This document shows, piece by piece, positions 937 through 52,528 of a stretch of DNA of 58,233 nucleotides. The DNA comes from Acidimicrobiales bacterium (GTDB lineage: Bacteria; Actinomycetota; Acidimicrobiia; Acidimicrobiales; AC-9), in the NCBI GenBank assembly GCA_051984395.1, contig JBPYEZ010000063.1:1-58233 (forward strand). The letters run 5' to 3'. Position 1 is the stretch's first letter; every line of letters starts with the position of its first letter. The notes under the pieces were generated by a model that was not told where the DNA came from, made no database searches, and worked only from the letters and a program-made list of their open reading frames with translations. Made by a program: the position numbers and the translations under genes.

Positions 937-3900
937 GTGAGCCTGCGCTCGCTGCCTGGACTGCTGCGCCACGAGGACGCGCTCGTCGACGTGCTCGGCG
1001 CGCCCGGGGCGGTGGTGGCCGTCCCGGAGCCGGCGCGGGCCTTCGTGCTGGCCGGGCTGGCGGAGCTGAGCGAGCGCCACCCGGTGCTGGTGGCCGTCCC
1101 CACGGGCGCCGACGCCGAGCGACTCGCCTTCGACCTCCGGGCCTACGCCGGACCGGACGCCGTCGAGACCTTCCCGGCGTGGGAGACGCTGCCGTTCGAA
1201 CGGGTCAGCCCCAGCGTGGAGACGATGGGGCGGCGGCTCCGTGCCATGTGGGGACTGCGACACGTCGGCGACCGGGCGAAGGGACCCCGCCTGATCGTGG
1301 CCCCCGTCCGGGCCCTCATCCAGCGACTCGGACCGCGCGTCGAGGACACCGAGCCGACCGTCGTCGCTGCAGGAGACGTCCTCGACGCAGACGAGCTCGT
1401 CGAGCGCCTGTCCCTCGCCGGTTACCGCCGGGAGTACCAGGTGGAGCACCGCGGCGAGGTCGCCATCAGGGGCGGCATCGTGGACGTGTTCCCCTCGACC
1501 GCCGACGACCCCGTGCGCATCGATCTGTGGGGCGACGAGGTCGACCGTCTCACCGCCTTCGACGTGAACGACCAGCGGTCGACGGCGGATCTCGAGCGGG
1601 TGGAGATCTTCGCCTGTCGGGAGCTCCTCCCCACCGACGCCGTTCGCGAGCGGGCCCGGCTGCTCGTCGCCCAGCAGCCCTGGGGAAGGGACCAGTGGGA
1701 CCGGCTGGCCGAGGGCCTCGTGTTCGACGGCATGGAGTCGTGGCTCCCGTGGCTGGCGGGCGAGGAGCACCTCCTCGGAGACCTCGTCGGACCATCGGGA
1801 CAGGTGGTGCTGATCGACCCCCGGCGGATGCGCGACCGGGCCGCGGAGCTCATCGACGAGGAGGTCGCGCTGGCGGCGACGTTGGCCCAGACCTGGGGGG
1901 CGACCGACGCCGCCGACCCGGAGGGCGCGGCGCGAGCGTTTCCCCGGCTGCACCTGCCCTTCGAGCGGTTGCTCGCCCACACCGCGGCGCCGGTGCTGTC
2001 GGTCACGTCAGCGCCCGAGGCACCGGCGACGCCGAGGATCGGCGCCACGGGCTGGGATCCCGTGGTGGCCGACGCCGCCCGCCTGGCCAAGCAGCTCGGT
2101 GGCCTCGCTCGTGACGGCTACTCGGTCACGGTCTGCGCGGAAGGTGAAGGCAGCGCCCGACGTGTGGCGTCGATCCTCGGCGAGGAGGGGCTGGCGGCGA
2201 CCGTGTTGGACGGCGAGCGCGCGCCGAACCTCAGCGATCCAGGGGTGCGGATCGTCGTCCAGCCGCTGGAGGGCGGGTTCGTCCTGCCGTCGGCCAAGCT
2301 GGCCGTGCTGTCGGAGACCGACGTCACCGGGCGCCGCCGGGCCCACCGACGGGCCCGCCCCCGAGCCCGGCCCCAGGAAGGCTTCTTCGACGATCTGGCG
2401 CCGGGCGCCTACGTGGTGCACCACCAGCACGGGGTCGCCCGCTACGCGGGGATGGTGCGCCGCGCCATCGGGGGTGGCGAGCGCGACTACCTCCTGCTCG
2501 AGTACCGCGGCGGCGACAAGCTCTACGTCCCGTCGGACCAGATCGACGCCATCACGCCCTACACCGGCGGGGAGACGCCGACGCTGCACCGCCTCGGGGG
2601 CTCCGAATGGCAGCGCACCAAGGCCCGGGTGCGGGCGTCGGTGCACGAGATCGCCGAGGAGCTGGTTGCCCTCTACCGGACGAGGACGACGGCGCCCGGC
2701 CACGAGTTCGGCCCGGACTCGCCCTGGCAGCGCGAGATGGAGGAGGCGTTCCCCTATGCCGAGACGCCTGACCAGGCCCGAGCCATCGCCGAGGTGAAGG
2801 CGGACATGGAAGCGCCGGCCCCGATGGACCGGCTGGTGTGCGGCGACGTCGGGTTCGGCAAGACCGAGGTCGCCATCCGGGGTGTCTTCAAGGCGGTCCA
2901 GGAGGGCCGACAGGCTGCCGTGCTCGTACCGACGACGCTGCTGGCTCAGCAGCATCTCCAGACCTTCTCCGACCGCCTCGCCCCCTATCCGGTCCGGGTC
3001 GAGGTCCTGTCGCGCTTTCTGACCGCAGCGCAGGCTCGACGGGTGGTGGACGGGTTGGCCGACGGCTCGGTGGACCTCGTGGTCGGCACCCACCGCCTCT
3101 TGAGCCCGGACATCAAGTTCAAGGACCTGGGGCTGCTGGTCGTGGACGAGGAGCAGCGCTTCGGCGTGACCCACAAGGAGGCGATCAAGGCCCTCAGCGC
3201 GGGCATCGACGTCCTCACGCTGACGGCGACACCGATCCCGCGCACGCTGGAGATGAGCCTCACCGGCATCCGTGACCTCAGTCTGATCAACACGCCTCCG
3301 GCCGAGCGGCTGCCGATCCTCACCTACGTGGGCGAGCTCGACGAGCGGGCCGTGAGCGAGGCCATCCGTCGTGAGCTGCTGCGCGAGGGGCAGGTCTTCT
3401 TCGTGCACAACCTGGTCCACGACATCGAGGCCACCGCCACTCGCCTGCGGCGGCTCGTACCCGAGGCACGCGTCGCCGTCGCCCACGGCCAGATGGACGA
3501 AGGCAGCCTCGAGAGAGTGGTGCTGGACTTCTGGGAGGGCCGCTACGACGTCCTGGTGTGCACGACGATCATCGAGTCCGGCATCGACATGCCCACGGTC
3601 AACACCCTCGTCGTCGACCGGGCCGACCGTCTGGGGCTGGGGCAGCTCCACCAGCTCCGGGGCCGGGTGGGTCGGGCGGGCCAGCGGGCCTACGCCTATC
3701 TCTTCTTCCCCCCCGAGCGGACCCTGACCGAGGAGGCCTACGAGCGCCTGCGCACGATCGGCGAGCACACCGAGCTGGGGTCGGGGTTCAAGATCGCCAT
3801 GCGGGACCTGGAGATCCGGGGCGCCGGCAACCTCCTGGGGTCGGACCAGTCGGGGCACATCGCCGCCGTGGGTTACGACCTCTACGTGCAGATGGTGAGC

Positions 3901-4458
3901 GAGGCGGTCTCCGACCTGAAGGGGGAGGTCCGTCGCGAGCCCGCCGAGATCAAGCTGGACCTGGCCGTGGACGCCCACCTCACGAGCGACTACGTCGCTC
4001 GTGAGGACCTGCGGCTCGAGGCCTACCGGCGTCTGGCCTCGGTCACGACGCCCCGGGAGGTGGAGGACATCCGCGCCGAGTGGCTCGACCGCTACGGGCC
4101 CCTGCCCTCGCCCGCCGAGGAGCTGCTCGAGGTGGGACGGCTGCGAGCCGAGTGCGTCCGCTCGGGTGTGCGCGAGATCACGGTGACGCCGGCCCGGCGG
4201 GGTGGTCTCAGCGGCGGCCAGGCAGTGGCCCGCCTGGCGCCGCTCTCGCTCAAGGCCAGCACCCAGGTGGGTCTCCGGCGCCGGCACCCGGGGGCGGTCT
4301 ACAAGGAGGACCTGGAGCAGGTGGTGGTGCCCCTTCACGGAGGAGCGGACGTGCCGGGAGCCCTCGTCGAGCTGCTGGGCGAGCTCGTTCCCGTCGCCAG
4401 CGATGCTGACACCGGCAACGGGTCCCCCGGTGGCCAACCGGTGGCGGGCAGCCGATAG
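937..4458 (+). CDS. mfd: transcription-repair coupling factor Mfd
   Basis: 1173 aa. It has a UvrB-homology N-terminus, a CarD-like segment ([15 protein letters not shown]), a DEAD/helicase core ([33 protein letters not shown]) and a TRCF C-terminal domain. Confidence 0.96.
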
Positions 4459-6863: not shown

Positions 6864-8704
<1,841 letters not shown>

Positions 8705-19722: not shown

Positions 19723-20820
19723 ATGCCCCTTTCCGAGCGCATCCTCATGGGTCCGGGGCCCTCGAACCTCTATCCCGAGGTGACGGCTGCGCTCGGGCAA
19801 CCGCTGCTCGGCCACCTCGATCCTGCGTTCCTCGCCGTGCTGGACGGGACGTGTGATCGACTGCGAGCGGTCTTTCGTTCCGCCGGCGCCTTGACACTGC
19901 CGATCAGTGGTACGGGCTCGGCCGGGATGGAGGCGGCGTTCGTCAATCTCGTGGAGGCCGGTGATCCCGTCGTCGTCGGGGTGAACGGCTTGTTCGGAGA
20001 GCGCATGTGCGACGTGGCCGGCCGGTGCGGAGCCGAGGTCATCCGCGTCGAAGCAGCGTGGGGGGAGCCGATCGAGCCCGACCGCCTGATCGCCGCCCAC
20101 CGCTCACCCAAGATCATCGCCGTCGTGCACGCCGAGACCTCGACCGGGGTGCGTAACGACGTCGAGCCGCTTGGACCGGCCAAGGGCGACGCCCTTCTCC
20201 TGGTCGACTGTGTGACGTCGCTCGGCGGCATCCCGGTCGACGCTGACGCCTGGGGCATCGACGTGGCCTACAGCGCCACCCAGAAGTGCCTCGGCGTTCC
20301 TCCTGGCCTGGCGCCGCTCACGGTCAGCGACCGGGCGCGGGCCTGCCTGCTCGATCGACCACGGTCGTGGTACCTCGACCTGGGCATGCTCGCGGACTAC
20401 ATGGAGGCCGGTGGCGGACGCCGGTACCACCACACGGTCCCGGTGCCGATGATCGTTGCCCTGCACGCCGGTCTCGGGGTGCTGCTCGAGGAAGGGCTGG
20501 AGTCGTCGTGGGCCCGCCACCGCGAGTGCGGCCGCCAGCTGCAGGATGGCCTCCAGAAGCTCGGCTTCGAGCTCCTGGCCGCCGACACCCACCGCCTTCC
20601 CGAGCTGACCACGGCGTGGGTCCCCGACAGTGTGCTGCCACGAGGTCTGACCGAGTCCGCCGTCCGGGCCACGCTGCTCGACCGCTACGGGATCGAGATC
20701 GGCGGTGGGGTTGGGCCCCATGCCGGCCGGGCGTGGCGCATCGGCTGCATGGGGCACACCGCCCGCCCGCGCAACGTCACCCTGCTGCTCGCCGCCCTGG
20801 GCGAGGTGCTGGGCCGATGA
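19723..20820 (+). CDS. class V aminotransferase (alanine-glyoxylate / serine-pyruvate aminotransferase-like)
   Basis: ATG at 19723. It reads LMGPGPSNLYPEV and LLVDCVTSLGG...DVAYSATQKCLG, which contains the PLP lysine context. Confidence 0.85.
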   Translation: MPLSERILMGPGPSNLYPEVTAALGQPLLGHLDPAFLAVLDGTCDRLRAVFRSAGALTLPISGTGSAGMEAAFVNLVEAGDPVVVGVNGLFGERMCDVAGRCGAEVIRVEAAWGEPIEPDRLIAAHRSPKIIAVVHAETSTGVRNDVEPLGPAKGDALLLVDCVTSLGGIPVDADAWGIDVAYSATQKCLGVPPGLAPLTVSDRARACLLDRPRSWYLDLGMLADYMEAGGGRRYHHTVPVPMIVALHAGLGVLLEEGLESSWARHRECGRQLQDGLQKLGFELLAADTHRLPELTTAWVPDSVLPRGLTESAVRATLLDRYGIEIGGGVGPHAGRAWRIGCMGHTARPRNVTLLLAALGEVLGR

Positions 20821-22874
20821 GCGGGTCCGAGACCGGCCAGGGAGGCCGGCTGGGAGGACCTGCCTCGGGTGCGACCGCGCCCGAGACCGGCCCGGGAGGC
20901 CGGCTGCGAGGACCTGCCTCGGGTGCGACCGCGCCCGAGGCCTGGCGGCCCGATCCCGGCGAGGCGGCGGCCACCAATGTGGGACGGTTCATGGCCCGCC
21001 ACGGGCTGACCCGCTTCGAGGACCTCGTGGCCCGCTCCATCGACGATGCCGAGTGGTTCTGGGCAGCGGTCGTCGAGTTCCTCGGCATCCCGTTCGTCGA
21101 GCCATGGCGGGAGGTGCTGAACGTCGAGCAGGGGGCGCCGTGGGCCCGGTGGTTCGTCGGGGGACGCCTCAACCTGGCCGAGGTGTGTGTCGACCGCCAC
21201 GCCGCCGCCGACTCCGGGAAGGAGGCGGTCGTCTGGGAGGGCGAGGACGGGGAGGTTCGCCGGTGGACCTACGGCGAGCTCCGAGCGCAGGCAGACGGGC
21301 TGGCCCGCATGCTGGCCGAGCACGGCGTGGGGGAGGGCGACACCGTCGGCATCTTCCTGCCCATGGTGCCCGAGACCGTCGCCACGCTGATGGCGGTGGC
21401 CAAGCTGGGGTCCGTCTTTCTCCCGTTGTTCAGCGGGTACGCGCCGGCGGCGGTCAGCGCGCGGCTGTCGGATGCAGGGGCCGTGGCCCTCGTGACCGCC
21501 GACGGCTTCCACCGGCGGGGGACCGTCGTCCCTATGCTCGAAGTGGCAAGAGAGTCTGTCGCCGCGGTCCCGTCAGTTCGCACCGTCGTCGTCGTGGAGC
21601 GGCTCCGTACCGGCGGTCTCGACGGCGTTGGTGTCGACGGTGCTCCCGTCGAGGGGTGCACCTGGGCGCGGTGGCCCGGCCCTGGCGCAGCCTTTTCGTC
21701 ACGCCCGCTCGACTCCGAGCACCCGCTGTTCATCGGCTACACGTCGGGCACCACCGGGCGGCCGAAGGGCTCGGTCCACGTGCACGGCGGATTCGGGGTC
21801 AAGGTGGCCGAGGAGGTGGCGTTCCAGTTCGACTGCCGGCACGACGACGTCCTCTTCTGGTTCACCGACATCGGATGGATCATGGGTCCCTGGGAGGTGT
21901 TCGGCGGGCTCGCGCTGGGCGCCACGCTGCTGCTGTACGAAGGCGCCCCCGACTACCCGGCTCCCGACCGCCTCTGGGCGCTGCTCGAGCGGCACCGGGT
22001 GAGCATCTGCAGTGTGAGCCCCACCCTCGTGCGGGCCCTGATGGCACACGGGAACGATCCCGTGACGACGCACGACCTCTCGGCGTTGCGCATCCTCGGC
22101 TCCACCGGGGAGCCCTGGAACGAGCAGCCCTGGTGGTGGTACTTCCAGGTGGTGGGCGGTGGGCGCTGTCCGGTGATCAACATCTCGGGTGGGACCGAGG
22201 TCGGCGCCTGCTTCCTGTCTCCCCACCCGGTCGCGCCCTTGAAACCGCTGTCGCTCGGGGGCCCGGCGCTCGGCATGGCCGTCGACGTCTTCGACGAGCA
22301 GGGCCGATCGCTGCGCAATGCCGTCGGAGAGCTGGTGTGCACCAAGCCGTGGCCGGCGATGACGCGAGGCCTGTACCGCGACCCCGAGCGTTACCTCGCC
22401 ACCTACTGGTCTCGGTGGCCCGGCGTGTGGACCCACGGCGACTGGGCGTCGATCGACGAAGACGGTGAGTGGTTCCTGCACGGGCGCAGCGACGACACCA
22501 TCAAGCTGGCGGGTAAGCGCCTCGGGCCGGCGGAGGTCGAGTCGGTGCTCGTCTCGCACCCCGGCGTCCTGGAGGCCGCCGCCGTCGGCATCCCCGACGC
22601 GCTCAAGGGAGAGGTCCTCTGGGCGTTCGTGGTGCTCGGCCCCGGATGCACACCGTGCGAGGAGCTCCGGGTCGAGCTCACGACGCTGGTCGCGGACCAG
22701 CTGGGACGGTCGTTCCGGCCATCGAGCATCCGCTTCGCCGCTGCCCTGCCCAAGACGCGCAACGCCAAGGTGCTCCGGCGCGCCGTCCGCTCGGCGGCGA
22801 CCGGCGCCGATGCCGGCGACCTGTCCGGCCTAGAGGATCCGGCGGCCGTGGACGCCGTTCGGGAGGCCCGATGA
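20817..22874 (+). CDS. AMP-forming acyl/acetyl-CoA synthetase-like ligase with a repeat-containing N-terminal tail
   Basis: ATG at 20817 in an ATGA overlap. Motifs are FIGYTSGTTGRPKG, GEP, WTHGDWASIDEDGEWFLHGRSDDTIKLAGKR and LPKTRNAKVLRR. Confidence 0.85.
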   Translation: MSGSETGQGGRLGGPASGATAPETGPGGRLRGPASGATAPEAWRPDPGEAAATNVGRFMARHGLTRFEDLVARSIDDAEWFWAAVVEFLGIPFVEPWREVLNVEQGAPWARWFVGGRLNLAEVCVDRHAAADSGKEAVVWEGEDGEVRRWTYGELRAQADGLARMLAEHGVGEGDTVGIFLPMVPETVATLMAVAKLGSVFLPLFSGYAPAAVSARLSDAGAVALVTADGFHRRGTVVPMLEVARESVAAVPSVRTVVVVERLRTGGLDGVGVDGAPVEGCTWARWPGPGAAFSSRPLDSEHPLFIGYTSGTTGRPKGSVHVHGGFGVKVAEEVAFQFDCRHDDVLFWFTDIGWIMGPWEVFGGLALGATLLLYEGAPDYPAPDRLWALLERHRVSICSVSPTLVRALMAHGNDPVTTHDLSALRILGSTGEPWNEQPWWWYFQVVGGGRCPVINISGGTEVGACFLSPHPVAPLKPLSLGGPALGMAVDVFDEQGRSLRNAVGELVCTKPWPAMTRGLYRDPERYLATYWSRWPGVWTHGDWASIDEDGEWFLHGRSDDTIKLAGKRLGPAEVESVLVSHPGVLEAAAVGIPDALKGEVLWAFVVLGPGCTPCEELRVELTTLVADQLGRSFRPSSIRFAAALPKTRNAKVLRRAVRSAATGADAGDLSGLEDPAAVDAVREAR
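20829..20936 (+). repeat. in-frame 54-bp tandem duplication (2 copies, 52/54 identical) within the ligase 5' end
   Basis: Copies are 20829-20882 and 20883-20936. They encode ETGQGGRLGGPASGATAP and ETGPGGRLRGPASGATAP. Confidence 0.9.
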
Positions 22875-27179: not shown

Positions 27180-28031
27180 TCAGGTGGCGGCCGGCACCTC
27201 GGCGCTCGGCCCGGGCTCGGGCACAGCGCCTTCTGGGCGCGCCGCGTCCTCGCGGCGCCGCCGTCGCCAGAGGACGGCCACGGCGACGAACCCGGCGGCG
27301 CTGAGGATCAACGACACGACCTCGACCGCGTCCCACAAGTGCGGAACGGCGAGCCAGAAGTACTCGTCGGTGAACCGGGTGAGCGACCACAGGGCGACCG
27401 CCGACGCCACCAGCAGCCCCACGGGCCGCCCCCGCGTCCAACGCTCCAAGAGGAGCAGGATCCCGAGGATGGCGAAGCACTCGAGTGACTGGAAGACCGG
27501 TACGGGGATGCGCTTGCCCACCTGCCCGGCGTACTCCAGCCCGTACCAGGCGTTGGTGGGATGGCCACCGCCATTGACCATCAGCTGGGGGCCCAGGAGC
27601 CGACCGACTCCCCAGGCGGCCACGAGCACCGGCGCCACCAGGTCGAGGGCCCTGCTGGTGGGGAGCTCGGGGCAGCGACGCCGGGCCAGCACGATGGCGA
27701 CGGGAACGGCGAAGAGGAGACCCCCGAACGACGACAGCCCGCCGTGCCAGATGGCCAGGATGTCGCCCGGGTTGTCGGCGTAATAGCTGATGTTGGCGAT
27801 CACGTGCACGACCCGGGCCCCGACGATGGAGGACACCACGACCCAGAGGAAGATCCCGCTGGCCCACCGCCATGGGTAGCCGTTCTTGCGCAGGCGGTGC
27901 TCGAAGTAGCGCAGCGAGAACCAGAAGGTGAGCGCCAGCCCGATCCCATAGGTGTGGATCTGGAGCGATCCGATGTGGAAGTCGACAGGGATTGGCTTCA
28001 ATGCGGCTCTCCGGGCGACCGATTGGGGCAC
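27180..28031 (-). CDS. lgt: prolipoprotein diacylglyceryl transferase
   Basis: It reads IHTYGIGLALTF, IWHGGLSSFGGLL and GRLLG...NGGGHPT. The start is uncertain (GTG 28031 or TTG 28001); the ORF-track start at 28280 is implausibly far upstream. Confidence 0.85.
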   Translation of the reverse strand: MPQSVARRAALKPIPVDFHIGSLQIHTYGIGLALTFWFSLRYFEHRLRKNGYPWRWASGIFLWVVVSSIVGARVVHVIANISYYADNPGDILAIWHGGLSSFGGLLFAVPVAIVLARRRCPELPTSRALDLVAPVLVAAWGVGRLLGPQLMVNGGGHPTNAWYGLEYAGQVGKRIPVPVFQSLECFAILGILLLLERWTRGRPVGLLVASAVALWSLTRFTDEYFWLAVPHLWDAVEVVSLILSAAGFVAVAVLWRRRRREDAARPEGAVPEPGPSAEVPAAT

Positions 28032-28126
28032 CCTCAGTATGCACCTCCCGACGAGAGCTACGGACCGCAGCGCTCCAGGGATGCCACCCCTGGATTCCCG
28101 AACACACGTTCGACTAGGATCCGACC

Positions 28127-30238
28127 GTGACCGATGGCCCCGGTGTGCCGGTGCGACTCCGCTGGCGGCTGGCGGAGGACGACGGCGGACAGCCGGCGCT
28201 CTTCGGCGACGACGAGCTGTTGGACCGGCACGTGGGCAAGGGGGAGTTCCGGGGCCTGGAGTTCCTCCACGTGAACGCACGCCGGGTGATCAACGAGGTC
28301 CCCGCCGCGTCGCGCATGCCCTTCCGCTACACCATCAACGCCTACCGGGGATGCAGCCATGCCTGTCCGTACTGCGTCGGAGGGGAGACGCCGATCCTCA
28401 TGTCCGACGGGCGTACCCGACCGATCGCCGATCTGCGGGCCGGGGATCTGGTCTACGGCACCAAGCGGGAGGGCAGATATCGCCGCTACGTGACGACACC
28501 CGTGCTCGCCCACTGGTCGACCCGCAAGCCGGCATACCAGGTCGTGCTGGAGGACGGCACCGAGCTCGTAACCAGTGGCGACCACCGGTTATTGACGCAG
28601 CGTGGCTGGAAGCACGTGACCGGCACCCAGAACGGTCGTCTCCGCCGCCCGCACCTGACGCTCAACGACAGGATGGTCGGGACGGGTCGGTTCGCGGCCC
28701 CACCTGAGCACACTCCTGACTACCAGCGAGGGTATCTGTGCGGGCTGATCCGAGGCGATGGCAACCTCAAGACCTACACCTACGAGCGGCCCGGTCGAAC
28801 GAACGGTGACGTGTACCGCTTCCGCCTCGCTCTCACTGATCCCGAGGCGCTTCGGCGCGCCGAGCGCTATCTACTCGACAGGGGAGTTGCCACCCGCTCG
28901 TTCGTGTTCACGGAGGCGGTGGGCGCCCATCGGGCGAGTCACGGCATCCGGACTCAGGCCCGCCTGGCCGTCGCCGCCATTCAGCAAGCGGTCGCCTGGC
29001 CGGCTGTGCCTTCGTCGGACTGGTGTAAAGGGTTTCTGGGGGGGATCTTCGACGCAGAGGGCTCGTACAGCGGCTGCATCCGCATCTCCAACACCGACGA
29101 GGCGATCATCGGACGGACGACGGCGTGTCTGACAGGCCTCGGGTTCGACACGACGGTCGACATGGGCAAACGGCCGCGGGTGAAGTACGTCAGGATTCGT
29201 GGCGGCCTTCGGGAGAATCTGCGCTTCTTTCATACCGTCGACCCGGTCATCACGAGGAAGCGCGTCATCGAGGGAACCGCCCTGAAGAACCGCGCCCCCC
29301 TGAGGGTGGTGTCGGTTCAGGCGCTCGGCGACGAGCTCCCGATGTTCGACATCACGACCGGAACAGGTGACTTCATCGCAAATGGGGTCGTCAGCCACAA
29401 CTGCTTCGCTCGCCCGACCCACGAGTACCTGGGGCTGAACATCGGGGAGGACTTCGACCGGCGGATCGTCGTCAAGGTGAACGCCGTCGAGCGGGTCCGG
29501 GCCGAGCTGGCAGACCACAGGTGGCGAGGAGAGCCCATCGCCATGGGCACCAATACCGACCCCTACCAGCGGGCCGAGGGCAAGTACCGGCTGACGCGCG
29601 GGATCGTCGACGCGCTGGTTGCCGCGGGCAATCCCTTCTCGATCCTCACCAAGTCGACCCTCGTGCTGGGCGACCTCGACCGCCTGGCCGAGGGCGCGAC
29701 GCGAACCAGCGTGAGGGCCAACCTGTCGATCGGCACCCTCGAGGAGTCGGTGTGGCGGACGAGCGAGCCGGGCACACCGCATCCTCGCCAGCGGGTCGCG
29801 GCCGTGGCCCGGCTCAACGAGGCCGGCGTCCCGTGCGGAGTCCTGATCGCGCCGGTGCTGCCCGGTCTCTCTGACCATCCCGACCAGCTGGAGGAGGTCG
29901 TGGACGCGTGCGTCGAGGCGGGCGCCGTCTCGATCTCGACGAATGTCCTTCACCTGCGCCCCGGCGTGCGGCAGCACTACCTGAGCTGGTTGGAGCGGAC
30001 CTATCCGGATCTGCTCGACTCCTATCTGCGCCGCTACCGGGGGAGTGCGTATCTTCCGAGCGCCGAGCAGCGCCAGCTCAGCGGCCTCGTCACCCGCCTG
30101 GTCGACGCCGCCCGGGCCCGTCGGGGCGGCGGCACCCGGTCCCGCAGGACCGATCGGGCGCTCACCCCGAGGGAGTCCCCGCCGAGCCGACCGCGAGCGG
30201 GCGCCCCGCCGCCGGCCCAGCTCGATCTTGGCCTGTGA
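28127..30238 (+). CDS. Rv2578c/SplB-like radical SAM protein, precursor containing an intein
   Basis: The exteins read ...FRYTINAYRGCSHACPY + CFARPTHEYLG...MGTNTDPYQ...ILTKS.... Joining them gives a 360-aa radical SAM protein with the CX3CX2C motif CSHACPYC. Confidence 0.9.
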   Translation: MTDGPGVPVRLRWRLAEDDGGQPALFGDDELLDRHVGKGEFRGLEFLHVNARRVINEVPAASRMPFRYTINAYRGCSHACPYCVGGETPILMSDGRTRPIADLRAGDLVYGTKREGRYRRYVTTPVLAHWSTRKPAYQVVLEDGTELVTSGDHRLLTQRGWKHVTGTQNGRLRRPHLTLNDRMVGTGRFAAPPEHTPDYQRGYLCGLIRGDGNLKTYTYERPGRTNGDVYRFRLALTDPEALRRAERYLLDRGVATRSFVFTEAVGAHRASHGIRTQARLAVAAIQQAVAWPAVPSSDWCKGFLGGIFDAEGSYSGCIRISNTDEAIIGRTTACLTGLGFDTTVDMGKRPRVKYVRIRGGLRENLRFFHTVDPVITRKRVIEGTALKNRAPLRVVSVQALGDELPMFDITTGTGDFIANGVVSHNCFARPTHEYLGLNIGEDFDRRIVVKVNAVERVRAELADHRWRGEPIAMGTNTDPYQRAEGKYRLTRGIVDALVAAGNPFSILTKSTLVLGDLDRLAEGATRTSVRANLSIGTLEESVWRTSEPGTPHPRQRVAAVARLNEAGVPCGVLIAPVLPGLSDHPDQLEEVVDACVEAGAVSISTNVLHLRPGVRQHYLSWLERTYPDLLDSYLRRYRGSAYLPSAEQRQLSGLVTRLVDAARARRGGGTRSRRTDRALTPRESPPSRPRAGAPPPAQLDLGL
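28373..29401 (+). mobile_element. intein (343 aa) with a LAGLIDADG homing endonuclease domain
   Basis: It starts at Cys (CVGGETPILMSDG, block A) and has block B TSGDHRLL. The two LAGLIDADG motifs are YLCGLIRGDGNL and FLGGIFDAEGSY. Blocks F/G read FDITTGTGDFIANGVVSHN and are followed by the +1 Cys. GC is visibly lower and A/T-ending codons (TTA, CTA, GTA, AGA) are more frequent than in the flanks. Confidence 0.9.
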
Positions 30239-30242
30239 CCGT

Positions 30243-31256
30243 CTAGAGCAGTGGCGTCAGCCTGCCGTCGCAGGGGCAGGCGGCATCGCCGAGATGGGCG
30301 ACGCCGTACAGGTCCTCCACCGTGGCCAGCATGCCAGCGTGGTCGACCGGCTGGGTCCACCGCAGCGCGCCAGGCGCCCCCTGGGCGACGACTATGGTGG
30401 CGATACGACCGCCGCGAGCACCGTTGCAACACGATGCACCGGAGGTGCCCTCGTCAAACGTCACGATCACGACCCCGTGGTCCCTGAACCAGCTGGATCC
30501 CAGCACCGGCTCCAGGTTCTTGGCCAACCAGGCGTCCATGATCGCTGTGGAGCAGTCGTGCCCGTCGTCGCAGAGGTCAGGTGTGACCCAGAGGAACGGT
30601 GGGGCGGCTCCGCTGGTGAGATCCCCGGACAGCTCGTTGTAGGGGACGACCCGTTGACAGAGCGCGGGATTGTCGGCCAGGTGCGAGACGTACATGAACG
30701 GATCGTGCTTCTTGGCGTAGGTGCCGTAGGAGACGCCGCGAAAGCACGGCATCGGCATGGCCTCCATGTAGGCCTTCCAACCGATCCCCTTGGCGCCGAG
30801 CTGGTCGACGAGCGTCGAGCCCTCCGTCCGACAGTCGCCGCAGTCCGAGTCGATGCCAAAGGTCGTGCCCGCCAGCAGCTCCAGGTAGTTGGGAAGGCTG
30901 GGATGGGTCGTGGCGAAGGCGTCCTCGGCCGTGCCGAAGCGTCTGGCCAGACCGTTCAGATAGGGCGCCTGGGGGTCGCCGATCACCGAGCTCCGCTCCC
31001 GGTTCTCGAGGACCACGACCATCACGTGGGCGACACCCGCCGGTGTGGCGGTGGACGTCGGGGTGGGCGTCGCTGGCGCGGCGCCGGGGCGGACCGCAGC
31101 GTGTCCAGCGGTGCCGCCACAGGCGGCAGCGACCACCGCCACGCCAATGGCCAGCCAATTTCCACGCCGGCCTCGTCGGCGAGCGATGGAGCTCGGTCGT
31201 GCCCATCGGCCCTGATGGCGCGGCATGACCCATCCTCGCAGCCGATCTTTCGCCAT
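30243..31256 (-). CDS. phosphoesterase-family protein (acid phosphatase/phospholipase C type), secreted or lipoprotein
   Basis: It has an Arg-rich N-terminus and ...AVVAAACGG, then VMVVVLENRERSSV and HPSLPNYLELLAG. M11 at 31226 is an alternative start. Confidence 0.8.
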   Translation of the reverse strand: MAKDRLRGWVMPRHQGRWARPSSIARRRGRRGNWLAIGVAVVAAACGGTAGHAAVRPGAAPATPTPTSTATPAGVAHVMVVVLENRERSSVIGDPQAPYLNGLARRFGTAEDAFATTHPSLPNYLELLAGTTFGIDSDCGDCRTEGSTLVDQLGAKGIGWKAYMEAMPMPCFRGVSYGTYAKKHDPFMYVSHLADNPALCQRVVPYNELSGDLTSGAAPPFLWVTPDLCDDGHDCSTAIMDAWLAKNLEPVLGSSWFRDHGVVIVTFDEGTSGASCCNGARGGRIATIVVAQGAPGALRWTQPVDHAGMLATVEDLYGVAHLGDAACPCDGRLTPLL

Positions 31257-51127: not shown

Positions 51128-52528
51128 ATGGCAACCACCGATCTGGACCTCGACCGGTACAAGCTCGGGTGGAGCGACGTCGAGGAGTACATCTTCAAGC
51201 CCAAGAAGGGCCTCAACGCGGACATCGTCCGGGAGATGTCCTGGATGAAGGGTGAGCCCGACTGGATGCGGGACATGCGGCTGAAGGCGCTCCGGCATTT
51301 CGAGCGCAAGCCGATGGCGCCCTGGTTCGCCGTCAACATGCCGAACATCGACTTCGACGACATCTACTACTACATCAAGCCGACGGAAAAGCAGGTCGAC
51401 GCCTGGGACGAGCTGCCCGAGTCGGTCAAGGCCACCTACGAGAAGCTCGGGATCCCCGAGGCGGAGCGCAAGTACCTGGCGGGCGTCACCGCCCAATACG
51501 AGTCCGAGGTGGTGTACCACCGCAACCGGGACAACCTAGAGAGCCAGGGGGTCCTGTTCTGCGACATGGACACCGCGCTGCGGGAGTACCCCGAGATCGT
51601 GAAGCGGTACTTCGGCACGGTGATCCCGCCCAACGACAACAAGTTCGCAGCCCTCAACTCGGCGGTGTGGTCCGGCGGGTCGTTCATCTACGTGCCGCCC
51701 GGCGTGAAGGTGGAGATGCCGCTCCAGGCGTACTTCCGGATCAACGCCGAGAACATGGGCCAGTTCGAGCGGACGCTGATCATCGCCGACGAGGGCGCGC
51801 AGGTGCACTACATCGAGGGATGCTCGGCCCCGGTCTACACCTCGGACTCCCTGCACTCGGCCGTGGTCGAGCTGGTGGCCAAGCCCAGCGCTCGCATCAC
51901 CTACACCACGATCCAGAACTGGTCGAGCAACGTCTACAACCTCGTGACCAAGCGGGCCCGCTGCGAGACCGAGGGCCACGTCGAGTGGATCGACGGCAAC
52001 ATCGGGTCGCGCCTGACCATGAAGTACCCCTCGGTGTACCTCGTGGGGCCCAAGGCGTCGGGCGAGGTGCTCTCGGTGGCGTATGCCGGGCCCGGTCAGC
52101 ACCAGGACGCCGGAGCCAAGATGATCCATGCCGCCCCGGAGACCAGCTCGACCATCGTGTCGAAGTCCGTCTCCAAGGACGGAGGGATCACGACGTACCG
52201 GGGGCTGGTCCACGTGGACGAGGGGGCCACCAACGCCAAGAGCTTCGTCCGCTGCGACGCGCTGCTCCTCGACGAGATGAGCACCTCCAACACCAAGCCC
52301 TACATGGAGGTCGAGGAGCGCGACGCCCAGATCGGGCACGAGGCGACGGTCTCCAAGGTCGGCGACGACCAGCTCTTCTACCTGATGAGCCGCGGCCTCT
52401 CCGAGCAGCAGGCCATGAGCATGATCGTGAACGGCTTCATCGAGCCCGTCACGCTCACGCTGCCGATGGAGTACGCCGTCGAGTGGAGCCGGCTGATCGA
52501 GCTGCAGATGGACGACGCCGTCGGCTGA
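51128..52528 (+). CDS. sufB: Fe-S cluster assembly protein SufB
   Basis: 466 aa. It reads [30 protein letters not shown] and [24 protein letters not shown]. It is uninterrupted, with no intein. Confidence 0.97.

Follow-up and report, generated by a model that had tools for sequence, protein, structure and literature searches.

The window (a 58,233-nucleotide stretch of Acidimicrobiales bacterium DNA, contig JBPYEZ010000063.1 of assembly GCA_051984395.1, positions 1 to 58,233) contains a GTG-initiated open reading frame (ORF) encoding a radical S-adenosylmethionine (SAM) protein of the Rv2578c/SplB-like type, interrupted by a long insert. In radical SAM enzymes the three cysteines of a CX3CX2C motif ligate the [4Fe-4S] cluster that binds SAM. 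The insert lies between the second and third of these cysteines, at nucleotides 28373-29401, and is very probably a class-1 intein with an embedded double-motif LAGLIDADG endonuclease, as an earlier note on this DNA had proposed. The parts of the gene are as follows:

28127-30238, forward strand: precursor gene, intein-containing Rv2578c-family radical SAM protein, 703 residues (GTG-start ORF; match to model NF038136)
28127-28372, forward strand: N-extein, 82 residues, ending C76-S-H-A-C80-P-Y, which holds the first two cluster cysteines (translation, orthologue alignment)
28373-28681, forward strand: intein N-terminal splicing (Hint) region, intein residues 1-103 (TIGR01445, invariant residues, model confidence above 90, kept in mini-inteins)
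within 28373-28681, forward strand: block A with Cys1, CVGGETPIL (invariant Cys1)
28574-28585, forward strand: block B, S68-G-D-H71 (invariant Ser68 and His71)
28682-29269, forward strand: LAGLIDADG homing-endonuclease domain, intein residues ~104-299 (Pfam LAGLIDADG_3, I-DmoI fold match)
28733-28768, forward strand: LAGLIDADG motif 1, YLCGLIRGDGNL (YLCGLIRGDG), with Asp129 (invariant)
29033-29068, forward strand: LAGLIDADG motif 2, FLGGIFDAEGSY (FLGGIFDAEG), with Glu229 (invariant)
29270-29401, forward strand: intein C-terminal splicing region, intein residues 300-343 (invariant residues, low substitution ratio of 0.10)
within 29270-29401, forward strand: block F, MFDITTGTGDFIANG (Asp326), and block G, VVSHN (His342-Asn343), all invariant
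29402-30238, forward strand: C-extein, 278 residues plus stop, starting with Cys+1 (C426) and comprising the radical SAM barrel core (Pfam Radical_SAM, residues 450-585)

In translation the insert runs from CVGGETPIL to GVVSHN and occupies exactly 343 codons. The junctions read NAYRGCSHACPY/CVGGETPILM and FIANGVVSHN/CFARPTHEYL, where the solidus, here and below, marks the insertion point. Intein Cys1 is residue 83 of the precursor, and Cys+1 is residue 426, the third cysteine of CX3CX2C. Removal of the insert in silico yields a 360-residue protein in which the motif is restored as CSHACPYC. The coordinates and residues quoted in the earlier note are all correct, and both its spliced product and its identification of the +1 nucleophile as the third cluster cysteine were reproduced.

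The spliced extein retrieves many intein-free proteins of 340-375 residues, and 110 intein-free relatives were found. Of these, P0121-P0127 share 77-91% identity with the spliced extein and, like P0139 and P0165, read CSHACxY/CFARPTH; their alignment with the precursor leaves a clean gap of exactly the 343 residues, which confirms the insertion point in the manner the earlier note had suggested. Colinearity of orthologues through the segment, which that note had named as the sign of a genuine domain, was looked for and not found. An intein-less site at the DNA level is provided by the syntenic locus L001 (nucleotides ~4220-4270), which reads GGATGCAGCCATGCCTGTGCTTAC/TGTTTTGCTCGGCCGACGCACGAT. 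Mini-inteins of 142-156 residues (P0030, P0085, P0231) occupy the same point, with both splicing ends kept and the LAGLIDADG region gone; their host genes, including that at locus L004 (4001-5551), are syntenic and 87-92% identical. The window has the same gene order as the intein-free loci L001 and L002, the full-intein locus L003, and the mini-intein locus L004: acyltransferase, isochorismatase, MDMPI, Lgt (reverse strand), radical SAM gene (forward), phosphoesterase (reverse; uncalled in L002 and L003), NAGPA, SDR, ADH, and NlpC/P60. Intein-free orthologues from this shared neighborhood have exteins 82-91% identical to those of the window gene.

Residue conservation was assessed over 117 full-length homologous inteins. 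Cys1, Ser68, His71, Asp129, Glu229, Asp326, His342, and Asn343 are invariant in all 117, and C426 (Cys+1) shows no variation among 116 sequences and is kept whether or not an intein is present. The complement of splicing residues listed in the earlier note (Cys1, the block B His, the penultimate His, the terminal Asn, and the +1 Cys) is therefore present and conserved, as are both LAGLIDADG motifs with their catalytic Asp129 and Glu229. With the exact gap in the orthologues, this goes well beyond a chance resemblance. Measured against the syntenic relative in L003, the ratio of nonsynonymous to synonymous substitution rates (dN/dS) is 0.096 for the exteins, 0.207 for the whole intein, 0.183 for the endonuclease domain, and 0.10 for the C-terminal splicing region. 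By these ratios the endonuclease domain is under purifying selection.

Profile hidden Markov model (HMM) searches, also suggested in the earlier note, identify both components of the precursor. Pfam Radical_SAM (42.3 bits against a cutoff of 29.5, 1.2e-10, residues 450-585), Pfam LAGLIDADG_3 (29.4 bits against 22.5), and NCBIfam intein_Nterm (TIGR01445) all score above their cutoffs. The top match of the precursor is the NCBIfam model NF038136 (678.8 bits, E 7e-204, model positions 10-568 of 574), and that of the spliced extein is NF038135, over its full length. The photo_TT_lyase model TIGR04070 reaches 21 bits against a cutoff of 400, so that the host is not an orthologue of spore photoproduct lyase (SPL). 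Membership of the Rv2578c family is supported by the syntenic relative P0005 (L003), which is 80% identical and bears the corresponding NCBI name. Homologues of the whole precursor are 60-83% identical, and both P0005 and P0107 are named "intein-containing Rv2578c family radical SAM protein" by NCBI; the JGI label for the host family is "DNA repair photolyase".

Sequence searches of the PDB gave no match at E<=1 with the spliced extein, and weak matches to gp41-1 and I-DmoI alone with the intein, so that structure prediction and Foldseek comparison were required. From 116 aligned sequences, AlphaFold2 modeled the precursor with a predicted local distance difference test score (pLDDT) that averages 84 and exceeds 90 within the intein. 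The model is closest in the PDB to the endonuclease-containing TliVMA, PI-PfuI, PI-SceI, and PhoVMA inteins, with E values of 1e-14 to 1e-10 for the first three. The endonuclease domain aligns to I-DmoI with a target template modeling (TM) score of 0.70-0.77 (~0.75) and a root mean square deviation of ~3.4 Å over ~180 columns. The predicted structure comprises a Hint fold and the α-β-β-α-β-β-α pseudo-dimer characteristic of LAGLIDADG endonucleases. In PI-SceI, PI-PfuI, and TliVMA, too, a monomeric double-LAGLIDADG endonuclease splits the Hint domain (Foldseek E 1e-14 to 1e-9 when I-DmoI is included), although sequence identity to these four proteins is 14-20%. The window intein shows no sign of an additional DNA-recognition region like that of PI-SceI and is also shorter (343 residues against 454 for PI-SceI and 454 for PI-PfuI).

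In a model of P0121, an intein-free orthologue, the barrel core has pLDDT above 90 and the cluster loop is of low confidence, as expected because the cofactor is absent from the model. Spore photoproduct lyase is its best match (E 1e-5, TM ~0.5), followed by SuiB, AprD4, and LipA. Together with the NF038135 result, this agrees with the Rv2578c/SplB-like assignment of the earlier note. SplB (PDB entries 4FHC and 4FHG) and the host both combine an N-terminal CX3CX2C motif with a partial TIM barrel of the radical SAM type, but the host family is only 16-18% identical to it.

Allele series and distribution

In the extein tree, full-intein, mini-intein, and intein-free alleles are interleaved. The extein cores of P0124 (no intein) and P0006 (full intein) are 99.7% identical, while for some pairs exteins that are 97% identical carry inteins only 62% identical; extein and intein identity correlate poorly (r = 0.45). 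Full-length inteins of 340-350 residues dominate, both among homologues (111/116) and among the intact-ORF loci inspected (74/75). Presence and absence between near-identical exteins, combined with extein-intein incongruence, are strong evidence of mobility, and the allele pattern is the one that a homing cycle would be expected to leave, in which an intein invades, its endonuclease decays, and the element is lost.

Some less regular sequences accompany this series. P0104 (676 residues, intein-containing) reads CSHAGTY/C, with Gly replacing the second cluster cysteine, either through a sequencing error or because the host gene is inactivated while still holding an intact intein. P0246, P0268, and P0284 (363-393 residues) are intein-like ORFs with almost no extein flanks, some of them without Cys1 or the terminal HN; they could represent intein/endonuclease genes that stand alone or have decayed, or else fragments of the assembly.

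When one genome was scanned for each species, at least 553 species genomes proved to carry the intein. At 75 of the 80 loci inspected there is an intact intein ORF at Cx3Cx2/C...HN/C[FY]AR. Carriers include Acidimicrobiales, Solirubrobacterales, and Thermoleophilaceae, cultured Micromonospora, Pseudonocardiaceae, and Streptosporangiaceae, and a few non-actinobacteria such as Microbulbifer magnicolonia. Outside Actinomycetota (loci L062, L067, L070, L081, and L058), hosts of the PA0069 type (CEHGCVY/../CYARPSH) occur in M. magnicolonia and in a metagenome-assembled genome (MAG) of Betaproteobacteria, and further carriers are MAGs of Kofleriaceae, Acidobacteriota, and Tepidisphaeraceae. These records point to cross-phylum transfer or to bin contamination.

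A search of a phage collection with the intein found no close relative, returning distant mycobacteriophage terminase inteins only, plus one 25%-identical intein. The latter, the sole record in the collection spanning the entire query, is a full-length intein in a gene annotated "radical SAM protein-like protein" (KX853510.1, Virus Rctr197k, 20420-21472). Vectoring by phage was considered and set aside as unsupported, since this search of the collection gave no close relative.

The arrangement is already known and catalogued, and the window copy is one more allele, its nearest database protein being 83% identical. The novelty implied by the earlier note is not borne out, given both the dedicated NCBIfam model NF038136.1 ("intein-containing Rv2578c family radical SAM protein", rSAM_Rv_intein) and the published SplB inteins: Novikova et al. 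(2016) place SplB (COG1533) among the commonest bacterial intein hosts, with 48 inteins, every one in Actinobacteria, and say nothing of the Fe-S motif in the main text (PMC4760082). NF038136 and the window precursor have host family, insertion point, and intein lineage in common and match over the full length; the model has ~259 intein positions against 343 residues in the window intein, so that part of the endonuclease domain aligns as insertions. A literature search on inteins in radical SAM proteins, on 4Fe-4S insertion sites, and on Acidimicrobiia found no paper describing this insertion site; candidate papers bring up inteins and radical SAM proteins in connections that have nothing to do with each other. 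The window case is a textbook-quality example, not a discovery.

Related inteins at the cluster loop

A search with the intein alone against 1.84 billion representative proteins gave 2081 matches, and junctions were viewed in the best 150 of these. Among these best 150, the N junction is Cx3Cx2/ in 82 of the 96 that are visible, and Cys+1 follows the C junction in 77 of 84. Their hosts include Rv2578c, PA0069, DUF5131/"radical SAM mobile pair A"-like proteins (one fused to ParB_N), B12-binding BchE/HpnJ-like proteins, and an NrdG-like protein. Inteins 35-48% identical to the window intein stand at CX3CX2/C in P0267, P0273, P0286, P0303, P0312, P0387, P0280, P0283, and others. By far the best NCBIfam intein match of these sequences is the intein part of NF038136 (E 1e-41 to 1e-82), as against only E 1e-6 to 1e-12 for DnaB or RtcB intein models. 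This suggests that a single intein lineage may have radiated across the radical SAM superfamily at the cluster loop; no paper stating that one intein lineage is specialized on this loop was found.

In one B12-binding radical SAM protein (P0336, 821 residues) the intein sits one cysteine earlier (GCPYR/intein/CNFC), and the +1 nucleophile is the second cluster cysteine.

Upstream LexA (SOS) box

Two features precede the host gene:

28098-28113, no strand assigned: LexA (SOS) box-like palindrome, CCGAACACACGTTCGA, conserved and the only core match in the window
28115-28120, no strand assigned: -10-like hexamer TAGGAT, ending 6 nucleotides before the GTG start

The box lies 16 nucleotides upstream of the GTG start and is the sole GAAC-N4-GTTC in the 58-kb window. 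Perfect copies of TCGAAC-N4-GTTCGA, the operator consensus of mycobacterial LexA, are found at the same offset in the syntenic loci L001-L005 (-27 to -12 from the start), where the flanks diverge and a TAnGAT -10-like hexamer is also present immediately upstream of the gene. Among distant intein-bearing loci of other Actinomycetota the box is upstream in 45 of 69, with zero background matches. In Mycobacterium tuberculosis, Rv2578c has a LexA peak by chromatin immunoprecipitation sequencing and shows RecA-dependent induction (PMC3381160). The box, together with the -10-like hexamer so close to the start codon, suggests a leaderless, LexA-repressed, DNA damage-inducible transcript. A scan of 27950-30400 for sigma-70 promoters and intrinsic terminators found nothing, which is uninformative for an actinobacterium of 71% GC.

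On the opposite strand, the mechanically called Lgt ORF (27180-28280, reverse) runs at its 5' end across the SOS box into the radical SAM gene. The true Lgt start probably lies ~90 codons downstream of the first GTG, because Lgt is called at 273-291 residues in homologous loci. With this later start the divergent intergenic region would be short (less than ~150 nucleotides) and would contain the LexA box.

Splicing, mobility, and competing explanations

By analogy with established class-1 chemistry, splicing would begin after translation with an N-S acyl shift at Cys1. Cys+1 would then attack the resulting thioester (trans-thioesterification), cyclization of Asn343 would free the intein, and an S-N shift would join Tyr82 to Cys426, giving CSHACPYC. 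Only after splicing would the 360-residue enzyme have its cluster loop in the native form that binds [4Fe-4S] and SAM. Once released, the intein probably cleaves DNA encoding ...GCSHACxY/CFARPTH... in alleles that lack it and would spread by gene conversion, which would explain why it is distributed so unevenly. The insert is above all a selfish mobile element, lodged at a conserved site in a gene that is probably under LexA control.

Several observations weigh against this account, or against parts of it. Pfam Intein_splicing falls below its gathering score (26.8 against 35.8), NF038136 narrowly misses the NCBI cutoff of 700 bits, and NF038135 is narrowly short of its own (394 against 430). 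Block B has Ser in place of the usual Thr and block F is without the common His, both features being invariant in the family. The inteins with which the window intein groups come from the nearest exteins; the window copy may therefore have been inherited vertically for some time, and its endonuclease need not be currently active. The intein has a GC content of 65.8% and a GC content at third codon positions (GC3) of 81.6%, against 70-72% and 89-90% for the exteins, which places it in the lowest ~4% of same-length in-frame windows across the genes of the window. The dip that the earlier note described, toward lower GC and more A/T-ending codons, is therefore real but modest. As evidence of horizontal acquisition it is weak, since in L003 the contrast in GC3 between intein and exteins is nearly gone (87 against 90).

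The earlier note also held that the cluster cannot form before excision. That Cys+1 is the third cluster cysteine is evident from the junctions; the rest of the claim goes beyond them, since the unspliced precursor also spells CSHACPYC, with intein Cys1 standing at the position of the third cysteine. The precursor could conceivably bind a cluster, or form a Cys80-Cys83 disulfide within CPYC, and either would block the first splicing step.

This geometry is the basis of the alternative that survives best, which we regard as possible but improbable. Splicing may act as a conditional switch, in which a Cys80-Cys1 disulfide formed under oxidizing conditions, or a cluster or metal held by Cys76, Cys80, and Cys1, blocks the first step, so that the oxygen-labile, SOS-induced enzyme would mature only in a reducing cell and its intein would have a regulatory role besides being a parasite. 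The CxxC geometry is plain from the sequence itself and is common to every intein at this site, including the related inteins with Cx3Cx2/ junctions described above. The host gene stands behind a conserved SOS box, so that the timing of its activity plausibly matters. There is also an experimental precedent among radical SAM enzymes, to which MoaA belongs. As in the window intein, the host of the MoaA intein is oxygen-labile, and Cys(-3) of the N-extein forms a CxxC pair with Cys1; the likeness of the insertion point within CX3CX2C goes by this Cys(-3)/Cys1 description only. In this intein, which comes from Pyrococcus abyssi, a disulfide present natively between Cys(-3) and Cys1 blocks splicing and keeps the oxygen-labile enzyme as a precursor until conditions become reducing (Callahan et al., 2011, as described in PMC3922620 and PMC10663303). 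That system differs in its archaeal host, in its role in molybdenum-cofactor synthesis, and in that redox control has been demonstrated for MoaA. Other actinobacterial inteins with catalytic cysteines and Fe-S- or DNA-linked hosts, those of M. tuberculosis SufB (Pps1) and mycobacterial DnaB, have splicing that responds to oxidative stress (PMC8891592, PMC6195587), but their hosts and sites are different and their sequences distant (DnaB model PRK07773, E ~1e-6, against 1e-72 for NF038136). Two points count against an adapted regulator in the window gene. Near-identical genomes lack the intein (99.7% extein identity) and mini-intein and null alleles are interleaved with full ones, which argues that it is dispensable; and the CxxC pair follows automatically from the insertion site, and hence is no evidence of adaptation.

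Somewhat less probable is an intein that splices but carries a dead endonuclease, a fixed passenger retained solely because any inexact deletion would ruin the Fe-S motif. Decay of this kind does occur in the lineage, as the mini-inteins of 142-156 residues at the same site attest, and the grouping of the window intein with those of the closest exteins is compatible with vertical descent. Against this, Asp129 and Glu229 are invariant in 117/117, dN/dS of the domain is 0.18, full-length inteins of 340-350 residues prevail in both samples, and strain-level presence and absence together with extein-intein incongruence fit ongoing homing.

That the insert does not splice at all, the gene being a pseudogene or the 343 residues a permanent extra domain, is very improbable: two curated HMM cutoffs are narrowly missed, but the ORF is intact, the splicing residues are all invariant, the exteins show the same dN/dS against intein-free orthologues (0.085-0.12) as against L003 (0.096), orthologues lack precisely this segment, and a radical SAM cluster loop of CX3CX2C geometry could not accommodate 343 permanent extra residues between its second and third cysteines. 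Both forms of this explanation were accordingly rejected.

The preferred reading, a mobile class-1 intein in the cluster loop, leaves room for speculation about its relatives. Each intein at CX3CX2/C necessarily creates a Cys(-3)-x-x-Cys1 pair, and a lineage specialized on this loop, with a viral radical SAM protein also counted among its hosts, might act across the superfamily as a set of gates responding to redox or Fe-S status, delaying the maturation of oxygen-labile enzymes. This idea is a doubtful one; if true, the gated enzyme in the window would be an SOS-induced repair candidate. Syntenic, nearly identical genes occur naturally with a full intein, a mini-intein, or none; this series, together with cultured Micromonospora carriers such as Micromonospora sp. 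CA-249363 (NZ_CP192020.1), could serve to test redox or Fe-S gating of splicing at a radical SAM cluster loop. The SOS box of the host gene and the recurrence of one intein lineage at a single motif across radical SAM families may interest specialists.

Elsewhere in the window, Mfd (937-4458), enolase (6936-8258), and other housekeeping genes are encoded, and there is no mobile-element context around the intein host. The window SufB gene (SUFBD_core, 51128-52528, forward strand) contains no intein, unlike that of M. tuberculosis.

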